Both the position numbers and the translations under genes were made by a program. Below, piece by piece: positions 31,785 through 49,274 of a stretch of DNA of 53,659 bases (its first letter is position 1; each line of letters opens with the position of its first letter). Source of the stretch: Deltaproteobacteria bacterium (GTDB taxonomy: Bacteria > Myxococcota > B64-G9). Below the pieces are notes generated by a model. It was given only the letters and a program-made list of their open reading frames with translations. It had not been told where the DNA came from and did no database searches. The DNA lies in contig JAUVBB010000002.1 of the NCBI GenBank assembly GCA_030591445.1, positions 1 through 53,659 of the forward strand, written 5' to 3'.

Positions 31785-33772
31785 TCAAGGAGCCAACAAG
31801 TGAGTTTGCAGGAAGCGGATTCGCACCCGGTTCATGAAATCCTTGTTTTTCTTTTTGCGAAAACCGTGCCCTTCGTCTTTGGCCAAGAGATACCAGACCT
31901 CACGCTTGCCTTGTTTTACCTTGCGCACAATCTGCTCGGCCTCGGAGGCCGGCACCCGGGGATCGTTGGCCCCCTGGATCACCAACAGGGGCACCGATAT
32001 CCGCTCGACACTCGACAAGGGAGAAATGCGCTGGAGAAAGTCGTGCATGGCGGGAATCCGCTCGTCTCCATACTCGACCCGGCGCAGATCGCGGCGGTAG
32101 TCCTTGGTGTTTTTCAAAAAAGTGACAAAATTGGAGATGCCGACATAGTCAATTCCGCAGCGTAGCCGCTCGGAGTAATGAACCATGGTCGCCAGACTCA
32201 TGTAGCCACCGTAGGATCCACCGCTGACCGCCACCCGGTTTTGGTCCAGATCCTTGCGCTGGGCAATCCAATCGAGCAAGGCCCCGATATCACGGACAGT
32301 GTCCTCTCGTTGCCGGTCGTTGTCCAAGCCCAAATAGCTGCGCCCGTAACCGTCCGATCCCCGGACATTGGGACGAACCATGGCCACGCCCATCTCATTG
32401 ATGATGTAGTTATTGCGGTCCAAAAAGTAGGGCCGCGCCTGGCCCTCCGGCCCACCGTGAATGGACACCAGCACCGGGTAGGGCGGCTTGAACTTGGCCG
32501 GCGGCAAATAGAGCAAGGCGGGGATCTCCCGCGGCTTGCCGGCAACTTGATCAAAGGTCGGGAAGTGGACGATTTTCGGCTCGACAAAGTGAGCCACGTC
32601 CAAGCCACCGGTCTCGGAAAAAGTCCAGCGCCGGGTGGTGTTCTTCAACAAATCGTAGACAAAGACATCACCGGGCAACTGGTTGCTCACCAGAGTAAAA
32701 GCCAAGCGATCACCCGCGGGGCTAAAGCGCAGTTGTTTAATGACCCCGGCCGGAATCTGGGGGCTGCGTTTGCCTTTGCCCTGGACCTTTTGCAGACGCA
32801 AGCGAGAAAACCACCCTCGTTAATCACCAAGGCCAACCATTTTCCGTCGGCCGACAGATCGAATTTATCCACGTTCCAGGCCAGGGCGTCGGCCAGAGTG
32901 CGCGGTCGAAACTTCTGGGCCCGGGTAGCCAAAGCGGCCAAGCGGACAAACTCGCCGCCGGCATCCGTGGTCAGATAGATGGTCTTGCCGTCAGGCGAAA
33001 ACTTGGCATGGGGGTTCGAGTTGCCCTGGGGGCCGGCCAGGGTCAGCTCCCGCAACTTGCCGCTTTTTAAATTGAGCAAATGCAAACTGCTACGGGTAAT
33101 CGAGACGTAGTGCTGCAAAAGCAAACTCTTGTCGTCCGGGCCAAAACTCATTGGCGACCAGCGACCTTTGGTCTTGGCCACCAAGTGGCGCTGCGCGGGC
33201 CGCATGGGATCCATCAGGTAGATATCGAAGTTGCGCCCATCCCGTTCGGTGGCGGCATAAGCCAGCCGAGTGCCGGCCCGGTTCCAGATCACATTGAGGT
33301 AACGACTCTTGCCATCGGTCAGCAGCGTGACCCGGCCGGAATCCAAATCCCGCCGATAAATCTGATAGGTTTCGGACCCACCCCGATCCATACCAAAGAC
33401 CAGATAAGGACAATCTTTGCGCGGGCAGGCCAAAGCCCACGAAACCCGGTCATGCTGGAAGGTAAGCTGGGTTCTTCTCCCACCCGCCGCGCTTACTTGA
33501 TGCACCTGGGCAGTGTCGCCAAAGCGGGTCGAGATCAACATGCCACCTTTGGCGGGCAGCCAATCCAGAAAGGTCGCGCTCCGCACGTCTTGATAGGGAG
33601 ACAAACCGGGCATCGACGCCGCCGGAATGGCCGGGATATTTTCTAGCACCAAGTTCTCAGCCGGCTGGGCAGAGACCGTTCCCGCTAAAAAAAGCGGCAT
33701 CAAGATAATCCATCCGCTACCCGCTCGCGCTCTCACCGTGTCTCTCCTTGCCCCTCTAATGTTCATCCACAT
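31785..33772 (-). pseudogene. S9 (prolyl oligopeptidase family) serine peptidase, split by a 1-nt frameshift (or an assembly error)
   Basis: ORF 32687-33772 encodes a signal peptide plus TolB-like beta-propeller repeats. ORF 31785-32801 encodes the alpha/beta hydrolase domain with GGSYGG (GxSxG), GANDPRV and EGHGF. The two frames join cleanly if the A4 run at 32807-32810 (T4 on the coding strand) had one more base: ...LVINEGGF|SRLRLQKVQGKG... Confidence 0.75.
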
Positions 33773-34710: not shown

Positions 34711-35052
34711 GTGAAACCCAAATACCGCCGCATGCTGGCCGGCATGCAAGCCAAAGTCGAAGCCGGAACCGAATACGATCAGGGCGAGCCCTGGTTTCTT
34801 TACATTCTCGAATGCCGAGACGGCAGCTTCTACACCGGCGTAACCAAGGACATCGAGCGCCGCCTGACCCAGCACAACGCCGGCACCGCCTCCCGTTACA
34901 CCCGTTCCCGGCGACCGGTGGTGCTTCGCTATCAGGAAAACCATGTCGGCCGTTCCCAAGCCCTTTCGCGCGAATACGCGGTCAAGGCGCTTAGCCGCCC
35001 CCAAAAAGAAGCCCTGGTCAAGGGCACGCGGCCTTGTGAACCGGAGCCTTGA
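34711..35052 (+). CDS. GIY-YIG (URI-type) nuclease-domain protein, small stand-alone form
   Basis: The protein shows WFLYILECRDGSFYTGVTKDIERRLTQHNAG...YTRSRRPVVLRY...REYAVKALSRPQK. The start codon is GTG. Its stop overlaps the nqrA ATG (TGATG). Confidence 0.85.
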   Translation: MKPKYRRMLAGMQAKVEAGTEYDQGEPWFLYILECRDGSFYTGVTKDIERRLTQHNAGTASRYTRSRRPVVLRYQENHVGRSQALSREYAVKALSRPQKEALVKGTRPCEPEP

Positions 35053-40889: not shown

Positions 40890-41960
40890 ATGAGCAAGAA
40901 TTCCCATAAGCCTTCGCGCGCCTTCGCCGCTTGTCTGCCCATTCTGCTAGCCGGCCTGGCCTGGTGGGCCATCAAGCAGTCTCCCCAAGCCCAAGCCGAA
41001 CCTTTGATCTTCAGCGGGCAAACCATGGGCACCACTTACCAGATCAAAGTGGTCGATACGAACTTGGATCGGGCGCAAATAGAAAAACTGATCAACGCGC
41101 AACTGGATCTGGTCAACCAGGCCATGTCCACCTATCGGGCCGATAGCGAAATCTCCCGTTTCAACGACGCCCGCTCCACCCTGCCCATGAAACTGTCCGC
41201 GCCCACCGTCGAAGTCATCGCCCAGGCACTCGAAATCAACCAACTCTCCGGCGGCGCCTTCGACCCCACCGTCGGTGCCCTGGTGCGCCTCTGGGGCTTT
41301 CACAAAAAGCAAGCGCTCAGCACCGCCCCCAGCCCCGAGACCATCGCCGCCGCCCGCGCCTCGGTAGGCTGCGACAAACTAGTCCTCGATCACAAAGCTG
41401 CCACCCTGCAAAAAACCCGGCCGGACTTGCAAGTCGATCTCGCCGCCATCGCCAAAGGCCGCGCCGTAGACCTCATCAGTGAAGCATTGACCAGCCTCGG
41501 TGCCCGCCATCACATGGTAGAAATCGGCGGCGAAGTCCGCTGCCAAGGCCAAAGCCCCCGCCACACCCCCTGGCGCGTCGGCATCGAACGCCCCGACGCC
41601 GGCCTCCGTGACGTCTACCGGGCCCTAGAACTTAGCGACCAATCTCTGGCCACCTCCGGCGACTATCGCTCCTTTTATCTGCTAAACGGCCAGCGCATTT
41701 CCCACACCATCGACCCCCGCACCGGCCACCCCATCACCCACAAGCTAGCCTCGGTCACCGTCATCCTCCCCGACTGCATGAGCGCCGACGCCTGGGCCAC
41801 CGCCCTAAACGTACTCGGCCCCGTAGCCGGCCTGGCCCTAGCCGAAAAATTGAAGCTCCCCGCCCTCTTCATCACCCGCAACCCCGACCAATCCTTCACC
41901 CAACAAAGCAGCACCCACTTCTCAGCCCTCTTCCCCTCACCACCCGAGAAAACCCCATGA
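40890..41960 (+). CDS. apbE: FAD:protein FMN transferase (flavin transferase ApbE)
   Basis: The protein shows GQTMGTTYQIKV, MSTYRADSEISRFN, GAFDPTVG, DLAAIAKG, ATSGDY and HTIDPRTG. It occupies the canonical position after nqrF. Confidence 0.9.
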   Translation: MSKNSHKPSRAFAACLPILLAGLAWWAIKQSPQAQAEPLIFSGQTMGTTYQIKVVDTNLDRAQIEKLINAQLDLVNQAMSTYRADSEISRFNDARSTLPMKLSAPTVEVIAQALEINQLSGGAFDPTVGALVRLWGFHKKQALSTAPSPETIAAARASVGCDKLVLDHKAATLQKTRPDLQVDLAAIAKGRAVDLISEALTSLGARHHMVEIGGEVRCQGQSPRHTPWRVGIERPDAGLRDVYRALELSDQSLATSGDYRSFYLLNGQRISHTIDPRTGHPITHKLASVTVILPDCMSADAWATALNVLGPVAGLALAEKLKLPALFITRNPDQSFTQQSSTHFSALFPSPPEKTP

Positions 41961-42151
41961 ACCCCCTGCTCATCTTCCTCCTAGCCTTCGCCCTTTTCGC
42001 CCTGACCTTCCTCCTAATCGGTCTCGGCATCCTGCTAAAAAAACGCACCCCATTGAAAGGCTCCTGCCATCAGTCCGTAGACGGCACCCCCTCCGGCTGT
42101 GATACCTGCCATTGCCAAGCAGCAAATAAAAAGAATCTCGATGATTCATAG
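41957..42151 (+). CDS. nqrM: (Na+)-NQR maturation protein NqrM-like
   Basis: This is a 64-aa ORF with one TM helix followed by four Cys (CHQSVDGTPSGCDTCHC). It overlaps the apbE stop (ATGA). Confidence 0.75.
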   Translation: MNPLLIFLLAFALFALTFLLIGLGILLKKRTPLKGSCHQSVDGTPSGCDTCHCQAANKKNLDDS

Positions 42152-42166
42152 AAAAGGAGAAAATCC

Positions 42167-42679
42167 ATGGTGGGGGAAAGCAACTTTTCCATATTTCAGC
42201 TACTGATTCTTGTCATCGGCGCGACTGCTAGCGTGGCAATGATTGTCGGCTGCTTCTTTTCTTGTCTGAAGAAGGACAGCACGACGACCTTCATCTTTGC
42301 CGGAAGTGGTTTGCTAAGCGTATTGGTAACAATGGCACTGTCTTGGTCCGAGTACCTGCAGGAAAAAGCCATGGTTCAGAAATCCATTGCCAACGCGAGC
42401 AGTTACCTTGAATCGGCAAAAGCCATGGCGGGCCTAACCGATTGCGCCAAGATTGTCACCTACAGTTTTTGGCTATCCATTCTACCTTTGGTACTGGGCA
42501 TAGCCTTGCTAGTGAGAGGCATGTTCCTTCTGCCCAATGAAGAGGCAAACTTGGGTAACCGGGTTCGGCTGGTGACTGCGATGGTTTGTGTGGCGGTAGG
42601 AGTTGGGCTGAGTCTGGTAGCCTTTGTAGACTACCTGCGATTCGATGATTTCTTTGCCTTGCTTCTGCTGCTGACCTAA
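42167..42679 (+). CDS. Four-TM membrane protein, no recognised family
   Basis: This 170-aa ORF starts 15 nt after nqrM behind AAGGAGA. It has two TM helices, an amphipathic loop (EYLQEKAMVQKSIANASSYLESAKAMAG) and two more TM helices. It is visibly AT-richer than the nqr genes. Confidence 0.6.
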   Translation: MVGESNFSIFQLLILVIGATASVAMIVGCFFSCLKKDSTTTFIFAGSGLLSVLVTMALSWSEYLQEKAMVQKSIANASSYLESAKAMAGLTDCAKIVTYSFWLSILPLVLGIALLVRGMFLLPNEEANLGNRVRLVTAMVCVAVGVGLSLVAFVDYLRFDDFFALLLLLT

Positions 42680-42689
42680 GGAGCCAGCC

Positions 42690-44030
42690 ATGGACTGGGA
42701 TATGCTCTTTTTTCCAAAGCATTTCTACATATGGACGATCGCTGGGATAACTTTGATGGGGCTGTTAATCGTTCTCATTGCGTCTTTCTCGGCAAAGGAC
42801 GAAAAGCGTTCGCTCCTGGTTCTTCAGTGGGCCTATATCCTAGCAGCGCTATCACCAATCGTCATTACCCTGCCTATGGTATTCCATTCCCATGCAGGAA
42901 AAATACCTGCTCTTGAGGTTGTTACCACTTACCTTGCATCTGAAAAGGTAGTGGTTTTAGCGAGAGGTATTGCTGAATTCAAGAGTTACTGGTTTCTCGG
43001 CGGCCTGGCCTTGATCGTGCTTTGCGCTCTTGGGTTTGTCTGTGTATTTACTTCGTGGCTCCGGCTGGGTAGGTCGGTCGCGAGATCCATTTTGCCAGTG
43101 TTGGCTCTGGGCGGTTATTCAATCGCTTTTATGGTTTCTGGGCTTGGCCTGGTCATACGCAGTGTAGTTCTTATGAACAGCTATTCAGCGGTTTCTTTCG
43201 CGGATTTCGCAGAAAAGAGAATACTGCTAGAGAGAAGTATTTTCGACGCTCCCAACCTGAGTCCTTACCTTATTGTGGCCACAACAGTGTTGCTGATTAC
43301 TTGTCTGATCATCATCGGCTTGACGATAGTCAATAACAAGGGACTCCCTCAGTTGGGAAGGTGGTCTCTGGCGCCTAGTGTCGTCGTCTTGATTCTGGGT
43401 GTTGGTTTATTTACCGCCACTCGTGATCATGCCAGTGATGCAGACTCAATTTCAAAACTGTTCCAAACAATACCGCGCGATGGAGACATATTATTTATCG
43501 AGAAAGACATACAGATACCAGATTTGAAGAACACGCAGAGTCTCGATCAAGCACTTGTCATTTTGATGGGCAAGCGTCACATTGCCATGGAAGGCAGAAG
43601 TATCGGAGCGATTGACGCAGTCATGGCCGACGAAAACTTGTACATCTCACGTTTGCAAGAGCTTCTTGAAAAATCAAAACAAAACCACAAACTACTATAT
43701 CCCCATCAGGAATTCGTTGGTCAAATCATTCTTCAATGTGATCGAGATACTCCGGGCCAAGCCGTGGCCAAAGTCGTAAGGACTTGCCACCAGAGTGAAT
43801 TTCGAAAAATTCAAATCGCAAGTGGTGGTTTGCTAAAAGTCACAACGGCAGTATTGGGTGATTATGTTCGCTACCGTCCAAGAGCAGTTCATATTGAATT
43901 AACAGAAGGACAAAAAGAAAACGTGATTGACCTTCCAGGCCAAGAGAAATTTTGGCAATGGGCAGACAAGATAGATAGATCCTCTGCGGATGGCAGAAAA
44001 GTTCTGATTAGTGTTGAGCAAGCACTGTAG
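42690..44030 (+). CDS. Six-TM membrane protein with an approximately 200-aa soluble C-terminal domain, no recognised family
   Basis: This 446-aa ORF starts 10 nt after the previous gene behind AAGGAG. Its first four helices repeat the TM-TM-loop-TM-TM plan of the upstream protein (loop motif TYLASEK versus SYLESAK). The soluble domain begins at about 43422. Confidence 0.65.
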   Translation: MDWDMLFFPKHFYIWTIAGITLMGLLIVLIASFSAKDEKRSLLVLQWAYILAALSPIVITLPMVFHSHAGKIPALEVVTTYLASEKVVVLARGIAEFKSYWFLGGLALIVLCALGFVCVFTSWLRLGRSVARSILPVLALGGYSIAFMVSGLGLVIRSVVLMNSYSAVSFADFAEKRILLERSIFDAPNLSPYLIVATTVLLITCLIIIGLTIVNNKGLPQLGRWSLAPSVVVLILGVGLFTATRDHASDADSISKLFQTIPRDGDILFIEKDIQIPDLKNTQSLDQALVILMGKRHIAMEGRSIGAIDAVMADENLYISRLQELLEKSKQNHKLLYPHQEFVGQIILQCDRDTPGQAVAKVVRTCHQSEFRKIQIASGGLLKVTTAVLGDYVRYRPRAVHIELTEGQKENVIDLPGQEKFWQWADKIDRSSADGRKVLISVEQAL

Positions 44031-44057: not shown

Positions 44058-44087
44058 AAGCCCCGAAAAGGGGCTTAGGAACTTTTT
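44058..44087 (+). terminator. Rho-independent terminator
   Basis: AAGCCCC-GAAAA-GGGGCTT forms a 7-bp stem (4 consecutive G:C pairs within it) at 44058-44076, followed by a T5 run at 44083-44087. It lies 28 nt after the stop at 44030. Confidence 0.6.
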
Positions 44088-44139: not shown

Positions 44140-44168
44140 TTGCCAGGTTCACAGTTATTGTGTACTAT
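44140..44168 (+). promoter_or_regulatory. Candidate promoter of the toxin-antitoxin pair
   Basis: TTGCCA lies at 44140-45. After a 17-nt spacer, TACTAT lies at 44163-68. The ATG at 44175 is only 6 nt downstream, so the mRNA would be leaderless or nearly so. Confidence 0.35.
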
Positions 44169-44174
44169 GGTGAC

Positions 44175-44456
44175 ATGATCAAGCTGGTTCGGATATCCGC
44201 GGCGGCGCAGAAGCAGCTCAGAAAAGTTCCGGCACATGTTGTTGACAAACTGCTTGCTTGGGTATTGCTGGTGGAAAACAGGGGGCTTGATGAAGGGAGA
44301 CGGGTACCGGGCTACCATGATGAACCGCTGAAAGGAAAGAGGAAAGGTCAACGCTCTATACGTCTTACCAGGGCTTACCGGGCAATTTACCGGATTTTGA
44401 GAGATGGCAGCATCGAGTTTGTGATTATTGAGGAGGTAAGCAAACATGGCTACTAG
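44175..44456 (+). CDS. Type II toxin, RelE/ParE superfamily (HigB-like gene order)
   Basis: This is a 93-aa ORF from the ATG at 44175. HDEPLKGKRKGQRSIRLTRAYRAIYRI...IEEVSKHGY matches the RelE/HigB-type C-terminal pattern (L.G...G..S.R....R..Y). It overlaps the downstream HTH gene by 11 nt. Confidence 0.8.
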   Translation: MIKLVRISAAAQKQLRKVPAHVVDKLLAWVLLVENRGLDEGRRVPGYHDEPLKGKRKGQRSIRLTRAYRAIYRILRDGSIEFVIIEEVSKHGY

Positions 44457-44760
44457 GAAAAAAAGCGTCGCGGTCAGTTTCCTGGAGGGCATCGCTGGTG
44501 GACCATTGACCCTGGGTCGTCTTATTTACGCCATCCGCACGGGCGAAAATATGAGCCAGGTTGGTTTTGCTGAAAAACTAGGCATTTCGAAATCCCACCT
44601 GTGCGATATCGAAAAAGACCGAAAACCCATAAGCCCAGTAAGGGCTGCAGGATTTGCCAAGCGACTGGGCTATTCAGAAGTGCAGTTTGTTCAACTTGCA
44701 GTACAGGATTCTATGAAACGCGCGGGCCTCAGCTATAAAGTTCACATCGAAGCAGCTTGA
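44446..44760 (+). CDS. XRE-family HTH antitoxin (HigA-like)
   Basis: The HTH reads MSQVGFAEKLGISKSHLCDIEKDRKPIS. The ORF is 104 aa and is preceded by a GAGGAGG Shine-Dalgarno sequence inside the toxin gene. Confidence 0.85.
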   Translation: MATRKKSVAVSFLEGIAGGPLTLGRLIYAIRTGENMSQVGFAEKLGISKSHLCDIEKDRKPISPVRAAGFAKRLGYSEVQFVQLAVQDSMKRAGLSYKVHIEAA

Positions 44761-45439: not shown

Positions 45440-46591
45440 TCAAGCGGAGAAGTCACCCTGCCAGAGTTTATTGATAAAATCTTTCCAAGGAAAGATATGA
45501 ATCCCATCCACCGTTCGTTCTCGATCTTCGAAGGAAACCACCATGTAGTCCTTTAGCAATTTCTCTTCCCGCAGCGCCTTCAATCCGCGCAAGTCTCTGG
45601 CTGAGACATGGCTGGTGGATTTAACTTCGATGGCCAATGCGTCATTGAATATGAAATCGACTTCAAACTGGGACTTTGACCGCCAGTAGTTGAGTGTCCT
45701 CAATGCTTGATAGTCGGTCAGGGATTTGAGTTCATGAAAAATGTAATGTTCAAAAAATTCTCCAAATTCTCTTGTCTTTTGATTGCTAATCGGTCGTCGT
45801 TGCTGCAAGACACGAACAACACCCATATCGAAAAAATAGAATTTTGATGTCGCCAAAGGTTTTCGCTTGGAGGTTTTGGCATAAGGCTCTAGTTCAAAAG
45901 CAATCAATGTGTCTTTTAGAATCTGAAAGTAGTCGCGCACCGTGGCAGTAGGCACTTGGGCGTCACTGGCAATTTTGGAATAATTGATCAGTTGGCCATT
46001 GCTTAAGGCGGCCACCTCCAGGAACCGGCTGAATGCGGGCACGTTTCTGACGATGGCTTCCGCGGAGATTTCTTCCTTTAGGTATTCACCCACGTAACTC
46101 TGCAGATCTTCATCGGGAGCATCGGAAAAATAGATGGACGGTATCAATCCTTGGTTGATGGCCTTGATTAGATCGAACTTCTCTTTGAGTTCTTTCAAAA
46201 CAAAGGGATGAAAGATTCTCTTTCGAGCCCTTCCGCCCAGGAGATTAACCCCACCCCGACGAAGTTTTCTGGCGCTGGAACCGGTCAGTAAGAAATGAAC
46301 ATCGGATTTATCGATGATCAACTGAACTTCATTGAGAAGATTGGGAAGTTTTTGAATTTCATCAATGACGATGATCGAATCCGAGGGCTTGAGTTCCTCC
46401 CGAATTCTGGTTGGGGTAGTTCCAAGAGCGAGAAAAACTCTGGTATCGAGTAGATTATAGGTTTTCACATTCTGCAAACTATGATCAATCAAGGAAGTTT
46501 TGCCCGTTTGCCTGGGACCAAACAGAAAATATGATTTGTTTTTCAATAACTTGCCCAAATCGAGCAACCTGGGAACAAACTTTTCTTTCAT
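45440..46591 (-). CDS. AAA_14-type ATPase with a DUF4143-like, PD-(D/E)xK-like C-terminal domain
   Basis: Walker A reads FGPRQTGKTS and Walker B reads IIVIDEIQ. The C-terminus FEVDFIFNDALAIEVKS carries a D...ExK arrangement. This is the most AT-rich gene in the window. Confidence 0.85.
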   Translation of the reverse strand: MKEKFVPRLLDLGKLLKNKSYFLFGPRQTGKTSLIDHSLQNVKTYNLLDTRVFLALGTTPTRIREELKPSDSIIVIDEIQKLPNLLNEVQLIIDKSDVHFLLTGSSARKLRRGGVNLLGGRARKRIFHPFVLKELKEKFDLIKAINQGLIPSIYFSDAPDEDLQSYVGEYLKEEISAEAIVRNVPAFSRFLEVAALSNGQLINYSKIASDAQVPTATVRDYFQILKDTLIAFELEPYAKTSKRKPLATSKFYFFDMGVVRVLQQRRPISNQKTREFGEFFEHYIFHELKSLTDYQALRTLNYWRSKSQFEVDFIFNDALAIEVKSTSHVSARDLRGLKALREEKLLKDYMVVSFEDRERTVDGIHIFPWKDFINKLWQGDFSA

Positions 46592-46641: not shown

Positions 46642-46780
46642 TAAGCACATAAGTTCCACACCACGCTATTTTGGAGTTGCTCGAAAGATACTGAAGGAAT
46701 CCCTGCGCGATAGGATTTGGTTTCCATATCCGTCCTCAGTTTAATAAAAAAAATACCTTGGGCAAATTCATTCCAGAGAG

Positions 46781-46789
46781 TGGTACAAT
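46781..46789 (+). promoter_or_regulatory. Candidate extended -10 promoter (TGGTACAAT) for the EGF-like lipoprotein gene
   Basis: TGnTACAAT lies at 46781-46789, preceded by the A/T-rich tract TTTAATAAAAAAAATACC. It is about 90 nt upstream of the ATG at 46878. Confidence 0.3.
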
Positions 46790-46877
46790 GAGTAGTTCAA
46801 AGTCATCTATTGCCCGTATGGAGAAAGTAGATGGCTCGATAGATTTAGGAAAACAAAACCTGAGGCGGGAGGATAGA

Positions 46878-49274
46878 ATGGGAAGGATTTTATGGCTTGT
46901 TTATTTATGCTGTCTAGTGGGCCTGGCCGGCTGTCCTAAAGTTGAAACTTCTGGCTGCACATCCGACAACGACTGTTTGGATACGCAACTTTGCTTGGAC
47001 AATTATTGTCAGTGCAAAGAGGCCTATGCTGGAGAAAATTGCGAGCAGTGTGCCGAAGGATTCGACAGGGATGGAGATGAATGCCTGCGTCAGCAGCTGT
47101 GTACCAATGATTCTTGCGCTGGTCACGGTCTTTGTGACGACAGTACCGGGGCCATCGAGTGCACTTGCTTTGTCGGTTATACCGGTGACACCTGCTCAGA
47201 ATGTAAAGACGGGTTCCATCTCATCGACGAGCAATGCGAAGCCGACAAAATGTGTTTGGAAAACAGCTGTTCTTTCCATGGAAGTTGTGAGGACCAGACA
47301 GGGGAGATCGTTTGCCAATGTGATACAGGCTATGCTGGAGATATCTGCGAAAGTTGTGATGATGGCTATCAAGACAAGAACGGGGACAGCACTTGCCGAA
47401 AAGACTGCGCGTCATCGGGTCTCAATTGTAGCCCCAACGGTTATTGCTCCGACGAAAGCGGAGAAGCCCTCTGTTTGTGTGACGAAGGCTACAGCGGCAG
47501 TCTCTGTAATGACTGTGCCGCCGGGTATCACGCCGAAGCCCAGGCTTGCGTTTTGGATACCACTTGCACTGAGAGTTCCTGTGCCTTCCGGGGAAGCTGT
47601 GAAGACAACAGCGGTGTGGTTGTGTGTACTTGCGATGAGGGCTACGCCGGATCATACTGCGACGAATGCGCGCCCGGCTATCATGAAAACGCCAGCCAAG
47701 ACGCCTGCACCAAGGACCCATGCGATCCCGATCCTTGTACCGGAGAACACCAAATATGTGAAGCAGACGGAAATTGCGGCTGTCAAGACGGCTACCAAGA
47801 CAACGATCAGAATCTGAGCTGTTTGGTGGATTGTCAAACCGCTCAACTAAGTTGTTCCGAGCATGGAAATTGTTCCGACGCCAGCGGCCAAGCCATCTGT
47901 GACTGTGACCTGGGCTACATCGGCGAGGCCTGTGACGCGTGTGCCGGCGGTTATCATATCGAAGACAGCTTATGCGTTGCCGACAGCGATTGCCTGGAGG
48001 CCTCCTGTTCCCATCGAGGGACTTGCGATGATAGCACCGGTGTCGTGGTTTGCACTTGTGAGGAGGGCTATGACGGAACCCATTGCGAAACCTGCGACAC
48101 GGACAATGGATATCACCTGAACGCAAAGGGTGATGCCTGTACCAATGATCCTTGTGACCCCAACCCTTGTATCGGTTCCTATCAGTTCTGTAATGCGCAG
48201 GGCGCCTGTGAGTGCATCGCCGGCTATCAAGACAACGATGGCGATGAGGAATGTAGCGCCAATTGCGCCGTCGCCGCCTTGACTTGCGACCACCACGGTG
48301 TTTGCAACGATGAAGACGGAAGCGTCGGTTGTGACTGTGACCCTGGCTATGCCGGAGATTATTGCGAGGACTGTTCTGCCGGTTTCCATCGGGAACTAGG
48401 TTTGTGTGTAGTGGACCAGACCTGTCAACTCGACACCTGCGCCTACCACGGCCAATGCGATGACTCAACGGGAATCGTCATTTGCGATTGTTACCCAGGC
48501 TATCAAGGCGACTTCTGCGATGAGTGTGCCAGCGGTTATCAGGACAACGATGGCAATGAGACTTGCGAACCAACTTGTGCGACCGCCAGTTTGTCCTGCC
48601 CGACTTACCAAACGTGTTTCGACGACAAAGGAGCGCCTCGTTGCGATTCCATCTGTCTGGTGCCGTCAAACGATGGTGCAACTTGCAGCAGTGATGGAAA
48701 TGTCTGTTTCGAAAACTCTTGCTGCACTCCTGAAAACTGTACGGATTTGGACCGGGAATGCGGTCTTTGGCCAAGTTGCGGTAGTGAGATCGATTGCGGC
48801 ACCTGCGGAGCATTGGAGGTTTGCGAGTCCGGACATTGCTTCGGCCTGGAATGGCAAGATCCTCCCAGTCCAATAAACAAATGGCAAGATGCGATCAACT
48901 ACTGCGAGAGTCTTTTGCATGACGGCCGTGACGACTGGCGTTCGCCGTCCATTAGCGAACTGCGGTCCTTCATTCGCGGCTGCCCGAACACCGAAACCGG
49001 GGGTACCTGCGCCGTGACTGACGAGTGCCTTGACTATGCGTGTCGGGATAGTTCTTGCGACGGCTGTACTGGGAATGAAGGTCCTGCAGATGGTTGCTAT
49101 TGGCTCGAAGGCACGGAAGCGGCTACCTGTTGGCTTTTCTGGTCATCGTCGTCCTATGCAAACAACTCGGCCTATGCATGGGCCGTCAACTTCAGCGGCG
49201 GCTACGTCACCGGCGGGGCCAAGGATGAGAACCAAATGAACGCCAGTGTGCGTTGTGTGCGCAGGGGGCCATGA
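46878..49274 (+). CDS. Cysteine-rich lipoprotein: tandem EGF-like modules plus a C-terminal DUF1566 (Lcl C-terminal)-like domain
   Basis: The ATG at 46878 follows GGGAGGA. The signal peptide and lipobox read LVYLCCLVGLAGC. There are nine copies of C-x-C-x2-[GA]-Y-x-G-x2-C-x2-C-x2,4-G-[YF]. The C-terminal 142 aa (48846-49271) show DWRSPSISELRS...FWSSSSY...AWAVNFSGG...VRCVR. Confidence 0.8.
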   Translation: MGRILWLVYLCCLVGLAGCPKVETSGCTSDNDCLDTQLCLDNYCQCKEAYAGENCEQCAEGFDRDGDECLRQQLCTNDSCAGHGLCDDSTGAIECTCFVGYTGDTCSECKDGFHLIDEQCEADKMCLENSCSFHGSCEDQTGEIVCQCDTGYAGDICESCDDGYQDKNGDSTCRKDCASSGLNCSPNGYCSDESGEALCLCDEGYSGSLCNDCAAGYHAEAQACVLDTTCTESSCAFRGSCEDNSGVVVCTCDEGYAGSYCDECAPGYHENASQDACTKDPCDPDPCTGEHQICEADGNCGCQDGYQDNDQNLSCLVDCQTAQLSCSEHGNCSDASGQAICDCDLGYIGEACDACAGGYHIEDSLCVADSDCLEASCSHRGTCDDSTGVVVCTCEEGYDGTHCETCDTDNGYHLNAKGDACTNDPCDPNPCIGSYQFCNAQGACECIAGYQDNDGDEECSANCAVAALTCDHHGVCNDEDGSVGCDCDPGYAGDYCEDCSAGFHRELGLCVVDQTCQLDTCAYHGQCDDSTGIVICDCYPGYQGDFCDECASGYQDNDGNETCEPTCATASLSCPTYQTCFDDKGAPRCDSICLVPSNDGATCSSDGNVCFENSCCTPENCTDLDRECGLWPSCGSEIDCGTCGALEVCESGHCFGLEWQDPPSPINKWQDAINYCESLLHDGRDDWRSPSISELRSFIRGCPNTETGGTCAVTDECLDYACRDSSCDGCTGNEGPADGCYWLEGTEAATCWLFWSSSSYANNSAYAWAVNFSGGYVTGGAKDENQMNASVRCVRRGP

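Follow-up and report, generated by a model that had tools for sequence, protein, structure and literature searches.

Two adjacent genes in a stretch of myxococcotal DNA encode membrane proteins of 170 and 446 residues. The stretch, here called the window, covers 53,659 nucleotides (positions 1 to 53,659 of contig JAUVBB010000002.1, assembly GCA_030591445.1, from a Deltaproteobacteria bacterium), and the gene pair lies directly behind its Na+-NQR operon, nqrABCDEF-apbE-nqrM. As judged by sequence comparison, the C-terminal half of the larger protein carries a true ExbD/TolR-type periplasmic domain (residues ~261–383), which is mounted on a body of six transmembrane (TM) helices. Within the ExbD/TolR superfamily, the family is an architectural variant not described before, and we infer its function from the evidence given below. 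On balance, it is probable that the pair forms an autonomous two-subunit inner-membrane complex that presents the ExbD-type domain to the periplasm and serves as an envelope link or transducer; with respect to nqr the pair would be a passenger, expressed by read-through. An earlier note on this DNA, made from the letters alone, had found no recognisable family and had offered two ideas: a membrane partner or accessory of Na+-NQR, and a horizontally acquired membrane system that uses the transcription of the operon. The open reading frame (ORF) coordinates, spacings and ribosome-binding sites given there are all confirmed. The genes and the segments of their products are as follows.

42167–42679, + strand: small gene, 170 aa
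42629–42649, + strand: motif D155-Y-L-R-F-D-D161 of the small protein, at the periplasmic end of its last TM helix
42690–44030, + strand: large gene, 446 aa
42690–43469, + strand: six-TM domain of the large protein, residues 1–260, with long helical hairpins and periplasmic amphipathic loops bearing (S/A)EK..LL
43419–43439, + strand: motif T244-R245-x-H247-A248-x-D250, at the periplasmic end of TM6
43470–43838, + strand: ExbD/TolR-type alpha/beta domain, residues 261–383, from Pfam PF02472 and profile comparisons
43839–44027, + strand: extra C-terminal subdomain, residues 384–446, beta-rich with one helix, family-specific

The ExbD/TolR-type domain of the large protein

Pfam ExbD (PF02472) matches residues 273–377 of the window protein with E = 1.4e-5 (25.6 bits, gathering cutoff 25.4), so that the verdict of no recognisable family was too strong. 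Ten of 19 family members match the same entry, and no other family recurs among them. When a profile of the 19 members (A5) is compared with a profile of 16 canonical ExbD proteins of ~180 aa (A7), hhalign aligns the two with a probability of 99.7% (E = 5.5e-26). Window residues 261–383 correspond to positions 55–177 of the ~180-aa proteins; that is, the homology begins directly after their TM helix. The A7 profile in turn matches the solved E. coli ExbD (6tyi, 6.7e-8) and TolR (9ddm, 1.2e-5). The family profile retrieves ~200 canonical ExbD proteins, for which a Pfam check gives E = 1e-13 to 7e-21. The six best PDB matches of a profile of the C-terminal half are all ExbD (E = 0.02–0.05), aligned on 'IILQADR...AGYRxVQLA'; the full-length large-protein profile found nothing among PDB sequences. 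Thus, the hunch of the earlier note that the C-terminal domain resembles ExbD/TolR is borne out by Pfam, by the profile comparison, by the transitive link to the solved structures and by the PDB matches.

A structural model agrees in outline. AlphaFold2 (AF2), run on the alignment of 19 sequences, gave a model with a mean predicted local distance difference test score (pLDDT) of 82.9 and a predicted template-modelling score (pTM) of 0.66. This is the model used here, as a run on a two-sequence alignment was unusable (pLDDT 42). Residues 289–378 are modelled as beta-beta-beta-alpha-beta-alpha-beta.

Hydropathy places the TM helices of the large protein at residues 17–35, 42–60, 102–120, 138–160, 195–213 and 226–244, and six TM helices are found in 19 of 19 full-length members. 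The AF2 helices of the membrane domain are longer hairpin arms spanning residues 9–34, 38–69, 83–126, 135–168, 191–214 and 224–258. Across the 19 members, loops 1, 3 and 5 are rich in K/R and loops 2 and 4 are neutral or acidic. By the positive-inside rule, the topology is thus N-out and the ExbD-like domain is periplasmic. TM6 occupies the place of the ExbD anchor helix and is uncharged in 18 of 19 members. The TRxHAxD motif at its periplasmic end is the most conserved motif of the family: T is found in 16 of the 19 members, R in 17, H in 14, A in 15 and D in 17, with E in the other 2.

The membrane domain contains an internal repeat. Hairpin 1 (residues 8–100) aligns with hairpin 2 (residues 96–194) at an hhalign probability of 91.9% and a score of 36.8. 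Of the controls, the reversed one reaches 17.9 and the best of twelve window-shuffled ones 20.9, and no control probability exceeds 17%. Outside the family, the six-TM domain has no relative in Pfam, PDB or Foldseek, and it shows no likeness to a channel or transporter. The C-terminal subdomain has likewise no known relative in Pfam or, as a domain profile, in PDB. AF2 models it as strands 381–386, 390–395, 398–405 and 412–414, a helix at 421–432 and a strand at 438–441; its conserved residues are V388, G390, L404, E419 and A425.

The small partner and the family

Hydropathy gives the small protein four TM helices (residues 12–30, 40–58, 103–121 and 136–154), with a predicted N-out/C-out topology. 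The counts of four helices in the small and six in the large protein, as given in the earlier note, are thereby upheld. The small protein has no match in Pfam, NCBIfam, PADLOC or PDB, the last searched with a profile of the small protein. Its pairing with the large protein is conserved, as the earlier note had proposed to check: in every locus with readable upstream sequence, a partner gene lies directly upstream and ends 3–16 nt before the large gene. Homologous partners occupy this position in loci L001, L004, L006, L007, L012 and L013. The partner measures 170–175 aa in the window, L001, L004, L007, L012 and the P0007 contig; it has at least 141 aa in L013 and is cut off by the contig end in L006. 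Mini-partners of 43–66 aa stand in the same place in L009/L017, L011 and the P0017 contig. The part of the 170-aa protein with which these align is its last TM helix with the 'DYLRFDDFF' tail, and this segment is thus the conserved core of the partner. Within it, conservation is highest in the D155-Y-L-R-F-D-D161 motif, which the 43-aa mini-partner retains.

The earlier note had read the two proteins as products of duplication and fusion. The internal hairpin repeat of the large protein fits that idea. The small protein, however, aligns with TM3–TM6 of the large one rather than with TM1–TM4. Three-sequence profiles gave no signal (hhalign 1.3%); deeper profiles gave 88% and a score of 44.4, nearly equalled by a reversed-profile control at 36.8. 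Shared architecture may therefore explain much of the likeness, and common descent of the small and large proteins is suggested at most. The SYLESAK/TYLASEK pair of motifs, earlier taken as a sign of homology, is rejected in that register, as hhalign puts the small protein on TM3–TM6.

The family is small. In word-indexed searches of 5.8 billion clusters, each protein had a single relative: P0002 for the large one, a distant homologue with 43% identity and 445 aa, and P0003 for the small one, a near-identical copy at 94%. A two-sequence profile, run exhaustively with HMMER against 1.84 billion representative proteins, gave 219 matches at E <= 1e-3, of which ~20 are full-length, with 408–465 aa and the same architecture, and one with 649 aa. 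The remaining matches, of ~120–200 aa, cover only residues ~257–378. L001 carries the pair at the same lengths with 48% and 43% identity, and this full-length conservation in a distant relative shows that both genes are real. NCBI holds two members, MBN2495527.1 and MBN2497647.1, both annotated 'hypothetical protein' and both from one Zodletone Deltaproteobacteria metagenome-assembled genome (MAG). It follows that this genome has two large-protein paralogues (L013, which is JAFGRB010000192, and P0012). A genome scan with a four-sequence alignment located the family in that Deltaproteobacteria MAG (L013) and in a Myxococcales MAG (L014); an earlier genome scan and a metagenome scan gave no further relatives. 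In L001, a gene adjoining the pair has a MYXO-CTERM sorting signal (TIGR03901, 24 bits, cutoff 20). To summarize, the family is small and undescribed, and its labelled members come from Myxococcota-type bacteria.

One member is extended. P0018/P0152 has the same architecture followed by an AgmX/PglI/TonB_C-type C-terminal domain, recognized by NF033768 (82.4 bits, cutoff 40), by a GltG-like tail (E = 8e-26) and by TIGR01352 (26.6 bits). The window protein has no TonB_C or AgmX-PglI domain in Pfam or NCBIfam. The extended member is encoded at two loci.

L009, 486–2435, and L017, 6014–7963: TonB_C-fused member of 649 aa, with a mini-partner of 53–66 aa upstream and toxin-antitoxin flanks of DUF1016/ParE and nucleotidyltransferase type

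The nqr locus and the accessory segment

Directly behind nqrM in the window lies a low-G+C segment of ~5 kb, of which the pair is the first cargo; as far as its composition and distribution indicate, the pair is a passenger of the operon rather than a component of the pump. Much of the comparison below uses L002 (JGI 3300013101), a sister strain in which the order nqrM, small gene, large gene, toxin, antitoxin is that of the window and the large gene is at 796–2136. The features around the pair are listed here.

41957–42151, + strand: nqrM-like ORF, 64 aa, with one TM helix and four Cys (Cys37, Cys48, Cys51 and Cys53); it closes nqrABCDEF-apbE-nqrM and is the upstream edge of the module
42152–42166, + strand: spacer of 15 nt with the Shine-Dalgarno sequence AAGGAGA, 14 of 15 positions identical in L002
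44058–44076, strand unassigned: G+C-rich hairpin AAGCCCC-gaaaa-GGGGCTT, probable terminator of the transcription unit from nqr to the pair
44175–44760, + strand: RelE/HigB/ParE-like toxin and HTH_3 antitoxin; the toxin, 93 aa from the ATG at 44175 (the start as called in L002), overlaps the antitoxin at 44446–44760
45440–46591, − strand: AAA_14 + DUF4143 ATPase of the PADLOC candidate defence family PDC-S01, E = 8.6e-52

The identities of ApbE and NqrA are confirmed by Pfam. The nqrM-like ORF, whose start overlaps the apbE stop codon (ATGA), has no match in Pfam or NCBIfam; it is labelled by its position after apbE, its single TM helix and its four Cys, and it would be a divergent NqrM, if it is one at all. 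Placement of apbE and nqrM downstream of nqrA-F is a known arrangement (PMC12174285, PMC6209661). A small GIY-YIG nuclease-domain protein is encoded directly upstream of nqrA at 34711–35052 (+), overlapping the nqrA start.

Most probably, to judge from the layout of the DNA, the pair in the window is expressed by read-through from the nqr operon. Co-transcription is compatible with the 15-nt gap. A scan from nqrM to position 42167 found no hairpin, T-tract, terminator-like site or sigma-70-like promoter site in the spacer, and the folding of 42120–42200 is unremarkable (z = −1.1). Scan and folding together confirm that, as previously claimed, no terminator separates nqrM from the small gene. 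The small and large genes are 10 nt apart, and the AAGGAG between them overlaps the stop codon. The intrinsic terminator that had been placed after the pair stands in part. The hairpin at 44058–44076 is real, and L002 has it with 100% identity, but it has a canonical T-run on the minus strand only (AAGCCCCTTTTCGGGGCTTTTTTT); on the + strand it is followed by TTAGGAACTTTTT, and the terminator scan made no + strand call there. There is no convergent gene on the minus strand that ends at this point, and the hairpin may work in either direction. The next + strand promoter-like site after the pair, TTGCCA-17-TACTAT at 44140–44168, lies ahead of the toxin gene.

This tight packing is what gave rise to the idea of an accessory or partner subunit of Na+-NQR, acting in assembly, regulation or ion coupling. 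The pair follows nqrM with no terminator between, the layout is the same in L002, and the maturation genes apbE and nqrM occupy the same position (PMC12174285). The idea was weighed against the context of the large gene in 12 lineages, for which the flanks reached as far as 10 kb to either side (L013 and L017). The window and L002, which share about 97% nucleotide identity over the stretch compared and count as one lineage, are the only cases with nqr genes upstream; the other 11 lineages carry the pair without them. Elsewhere the neighbours are unrelated and differ from lineage to lineage: a MYXO-CTERM Cys-rich protein, an S26 signal peptidase, a cytochrome-c-like protein, an acetyltransferase, an aminotransferase and unknowns. 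In addition, the base composition of the pair is sharply unlike that of the nqr genes, and the ExbD/TolR superfamily has no known role in NQR. Thus, since the linkage is confined to one of 12 lineages, the accessory idea, which the earlier note had itself tied to conserved nqr linkage, is rejected as very improbable.

The same contexts bear on the membrane partner expected of an ExbD protein. No MotA/ExbB/TolQ gene is present in the flanks of the 12 lineages. As a positive control, the closest canonical ExbD, P0020 in L015, is the third gene of a MotA_ExbB-ExbD-ExbD operon. A gene for an FHA + sigma-54-activator (NtrC-like) protein lies within ~3 kb of the pair at two unrelated loci, L011 1406–2791 (−) and L017 10963–12714 (+). 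The proximity may be a coincidence, such regulators being numerous in Myxococcota.

The earlier note had also reported an abrupt change of composition at the pair. Its counts of G+C (37/60, 28/60 and 23/60) are exact, and G+C at third codon positions (GC3) falls from 0.70–0.80 in nqrA-F and apbE to 0.65 in nqrM, 0.60 in the small gene and 0.46 in the large gene. The low-G+C stretch is, however, not limited to the two genes. The nqrM-like ORF, at 0.53, is already below apbE (0.61), and a block at ~42.0–47.0 kb has a G+C of 0.42–0.50, against 0.55–0.64 on either side. It contains the pair, the toxin-antitoxin pair, an unknown 201-aa protein and the ATPase. An Rfam scan of 34–48 kb gave no match. 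In most loci, the G+C of the pair tracks that of the host; it is ~0.10 below the host in the window and L001. The low GC3, the toxin-antitoxin and candidate-defence genes of the 5-kb accessory segment, the 15-nt gap free of terminator and promoter, and the shared layout in L002 all fit the idea of a horizontally acquired membrane system that uses the transcription of the operon.

The remaining window is core chromosome, with dxr, pyrH, rpsB, secA, recN, rarA, fusA and an MscS channel. Beside the low-G+C block, 46758–49274 (+) encodes an 838-aa secreted protein with many Cys-rich EGF-like repeats and a terminal Lcl_C (DUF1566) domain; Cys-rich secreted proteins flank the pair in L001 too, one of them with a MYXO-CTERM signal. 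At 31785–33772 (−), two overlapping ORFs in different frames encode a TolB-like beta-propeller (32687–33772) and a Peptidase_S9 catalytic domain (31785–32801). The arrangement suggests halves of one prolyl-oligopeptidase/DPP-type gene, separated by a frameshift or a sequencing error.

Given what the accessory segment contains, the pair might instead serve a defence or toxin-antitoxin island as its membrane effector or sensor, for instance in abortive infection. Genes of these two kinds adjoin the pair in the window and recur as HipA/HTH in L006, HTH_37 in L004 and ParE + DUF1016 in L009/L017, and the large gene has an elevated ratio of non-synonymous to synonymous substitution rates (dN/dS). 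Yet neither protein has a PADLOC match at E <= 0.1, and the pair is absent from phage, plasmid and viral-contig collections. No specific toxin-antitoxin or defence gene is conserved beside it, such genes being marks of variable regions, and at other loci the neighbours are ordinary (aminotransferase, acetyltransferase, S26 peptidase). We regard a defence role as decidedly unlikely.

Comparison with L002 sets the large gene apart from its neighbours. Nucleotide identity between the window and L002 climbs from 86–89% at the end of apbE and in nqrM to 97% in the large gene. Here there are 11 synonymous and 27 non-synonymous differences (dS 0.036, dN/dS 0.76). The small gene, nqrM and the toxin-antitoxin genes show dS of 0.11–0.31 and dN/dS of 0.13–0.19, so the dS of the large gene is ~5-fold lower. 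Fisher tests give p = 6e-4 for the ratio of synonymous to non-synonymous differences and p = 1e-5 for synonymous divergence. Candidate explanations are that the 1.3-kb gene recently recombined or went through a sweep while selection on it was relaxed, or that its periplasmic part is under diversifying selection. A further reading is that the large gene is a decaying passenger in this lineage, under relaxed selection and with no current function. Its dN/dS of 0.76, against 0.13–0.19 in flanking genes, and its atypical GC3 speak for decay. Against it, both copies are full-length, with no frameshift or stop, and the family motifs are all kept across the 27 changes, none of which touches T244, R245, H247, A248, D250 or D351. 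High dN/dS is moreover common in very close comparisons, and the partner gene is under purifying selection (dN/dS = 0.15). We consider decay unlikely.

Proposed function and known systems

We return to the proposal that the pair forms an autonomous two-subunit complex. The last helix of the partner would pack against TM6 of the large subunit. The charged motifs of the two, YLRFDD in the partner and TRxHAxD at TM6, would then meet as a polar cluster where the ExbD-like domain has its base. By analogy with Ton, Tol and Agl systems, the ExbD-type domain might dimerize and hold a periplasmic partner, which could be a TonB-like protein or peptidoglycan. A complex holding such a partner would connect the inner membrane with the cell envelope or pass signals from one to the other. 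It would not be the axle of a canonical 5:2 motor, as the large protein has no single-pass helix and no membrane Asp, and no ExbB/TolQ gene is nearby.

Several points weigh against this proposal. The Pfam match of the window protein, taken by itself, exceeds its threshold by just 0.2 bits. Foldseek, run with the full-length model only, gave no significant match and no ExbD in the top 50, the best being NosY at E = 0.16. We infer the subunit contact and the binding partner from co-conserved motifs at equivalent membrane positions. Most contigs are short, and an ExbB/TolQ or TonB partner may be encoded elsewhere in these genomes. The dN/dS of 0.76 with low dS could reflect relaxed constraint on the large gene in this lineage. 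Finally, no convincing tRNA, flanking direct or inverted repeats or integrase bounds the low-G+C block, which is thus not marked as a discrete element.

An alternative use of the same motifs would make the pair a self-contained, ExbB-independent, ion-driven transducer. The six-TM bundle and the partner would together provide an ion path via the conserved cluster of R245/H247/D250 in the large protein and D155/R158/D161 in the small one, and so change the conformation of the ExbD-like domain; behind Na+-NQR, the pair might draw on the sodium gradient. The lack of an ExbB/TolQ gene in any of the 12 contexts is in keeping with this, as is the fact that both subunits have conserved ionisable motifs on one and the same side of the membrane. 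A TonB_C-type domain, such as the one fused to a relative, has to be energised in the systems known so far. The conserved charges, however, lie at the periplasmic boundary and not within the bilayer, with TM6 uncharged in 18 of 19 members. No likeness to a channel or transporter was found, and nqr adjacency is limited to one lineage. It is unlikely. Slightly more doubtful still is the boldest form of the idea, a new minimal class of envelope energiser in which a polytopic ExbD-domain protein and its one-helix partner conduct ions themselves, replace the ExbB/TolQ pentamer and power a periplasmic ExbD/TonB-like arm, in this genome wired to the sodium-motive force of Na+-NQR.

Of known systems, ApbE and NqrM share with the pair a place immediately downstream of nqrA-F and probable co-transcription with these genes (PMC12174285). 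The pair differs from them in having no sequence relation to either, in lacking conserved nqr linkage and in its foreign-looking composition. For Na+-NQR biology, the case means that genes packed behind nqrM are not automatically accessories of the pump.

The myxobacterial TonB-like gliding proteins GltG and GltJ and the AgmX/PglI C-terminal domain (NF033768) are related to the family through the TonB_C-type domain in which the P0018/P0152 member ends and which the window protein lacks. The fusion puts the family functionally close to the envelope-spanning Ton/Agl-like machines of Myxococcota, and it offers an experimental handle in myxobacteria. None of the loci showed gliding or agl/glt genes beside the family member.

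The closest relatives of the domain itself are the long (~180 aa) second ExbDs of exbB-exbD-exbD operons, such as P0020 in L015, retrieved by the family profile with E values down to 5e-19. Homology to these starts right after their TM helix, at 'GEILF..KDI.LP'. Unlike the large protein, they are bitopic and have the TM Asp, and their genes follow one for MotA_ExbB and one for another ExbD.

The broader comparison is with ExbD and TolR (PF02472), the axle subunits of the Ton and Tol 5:2 motors. The periplasmic domain is homologous, including 'IILQADR...AGY..VQLA', and in both cases it lies in the periplasm just after a membrane helix. ExbD and TolR, however, are bitopic, with one N-terminal TM helix and an N-in/C-out topology, whereas the large protein has six TM helices and retains C-out. 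The TM Asp of ExbD/TolR, which in E. coli is D25 of ExbD and D23 of TolR, is invariant in the canonical subfamily A7; the large protein has no membrane Asp. ExbD and TolR are encoded beside a MotA/TolQ/ExbB gene, but the large gene is not, in 12 lineages. The large protein has, in addition, the extra C-terminal subdomain of ~65 residues and a dedicated small partner of unrelated sequence.

Our literature search for polytopic or ExbD-like fusions found none beyond a general review of 5:2 motors. To our knowledge, ExbD/TolR-type domains occur only as the single-pass axles of 5:2 ion-driven motors (Ton, Tol, Agl). With an ExbD periplasmic domain on a six-helix body, the family either puts the ExbD fold to a non-motor use or couples it to the membrane in another way.

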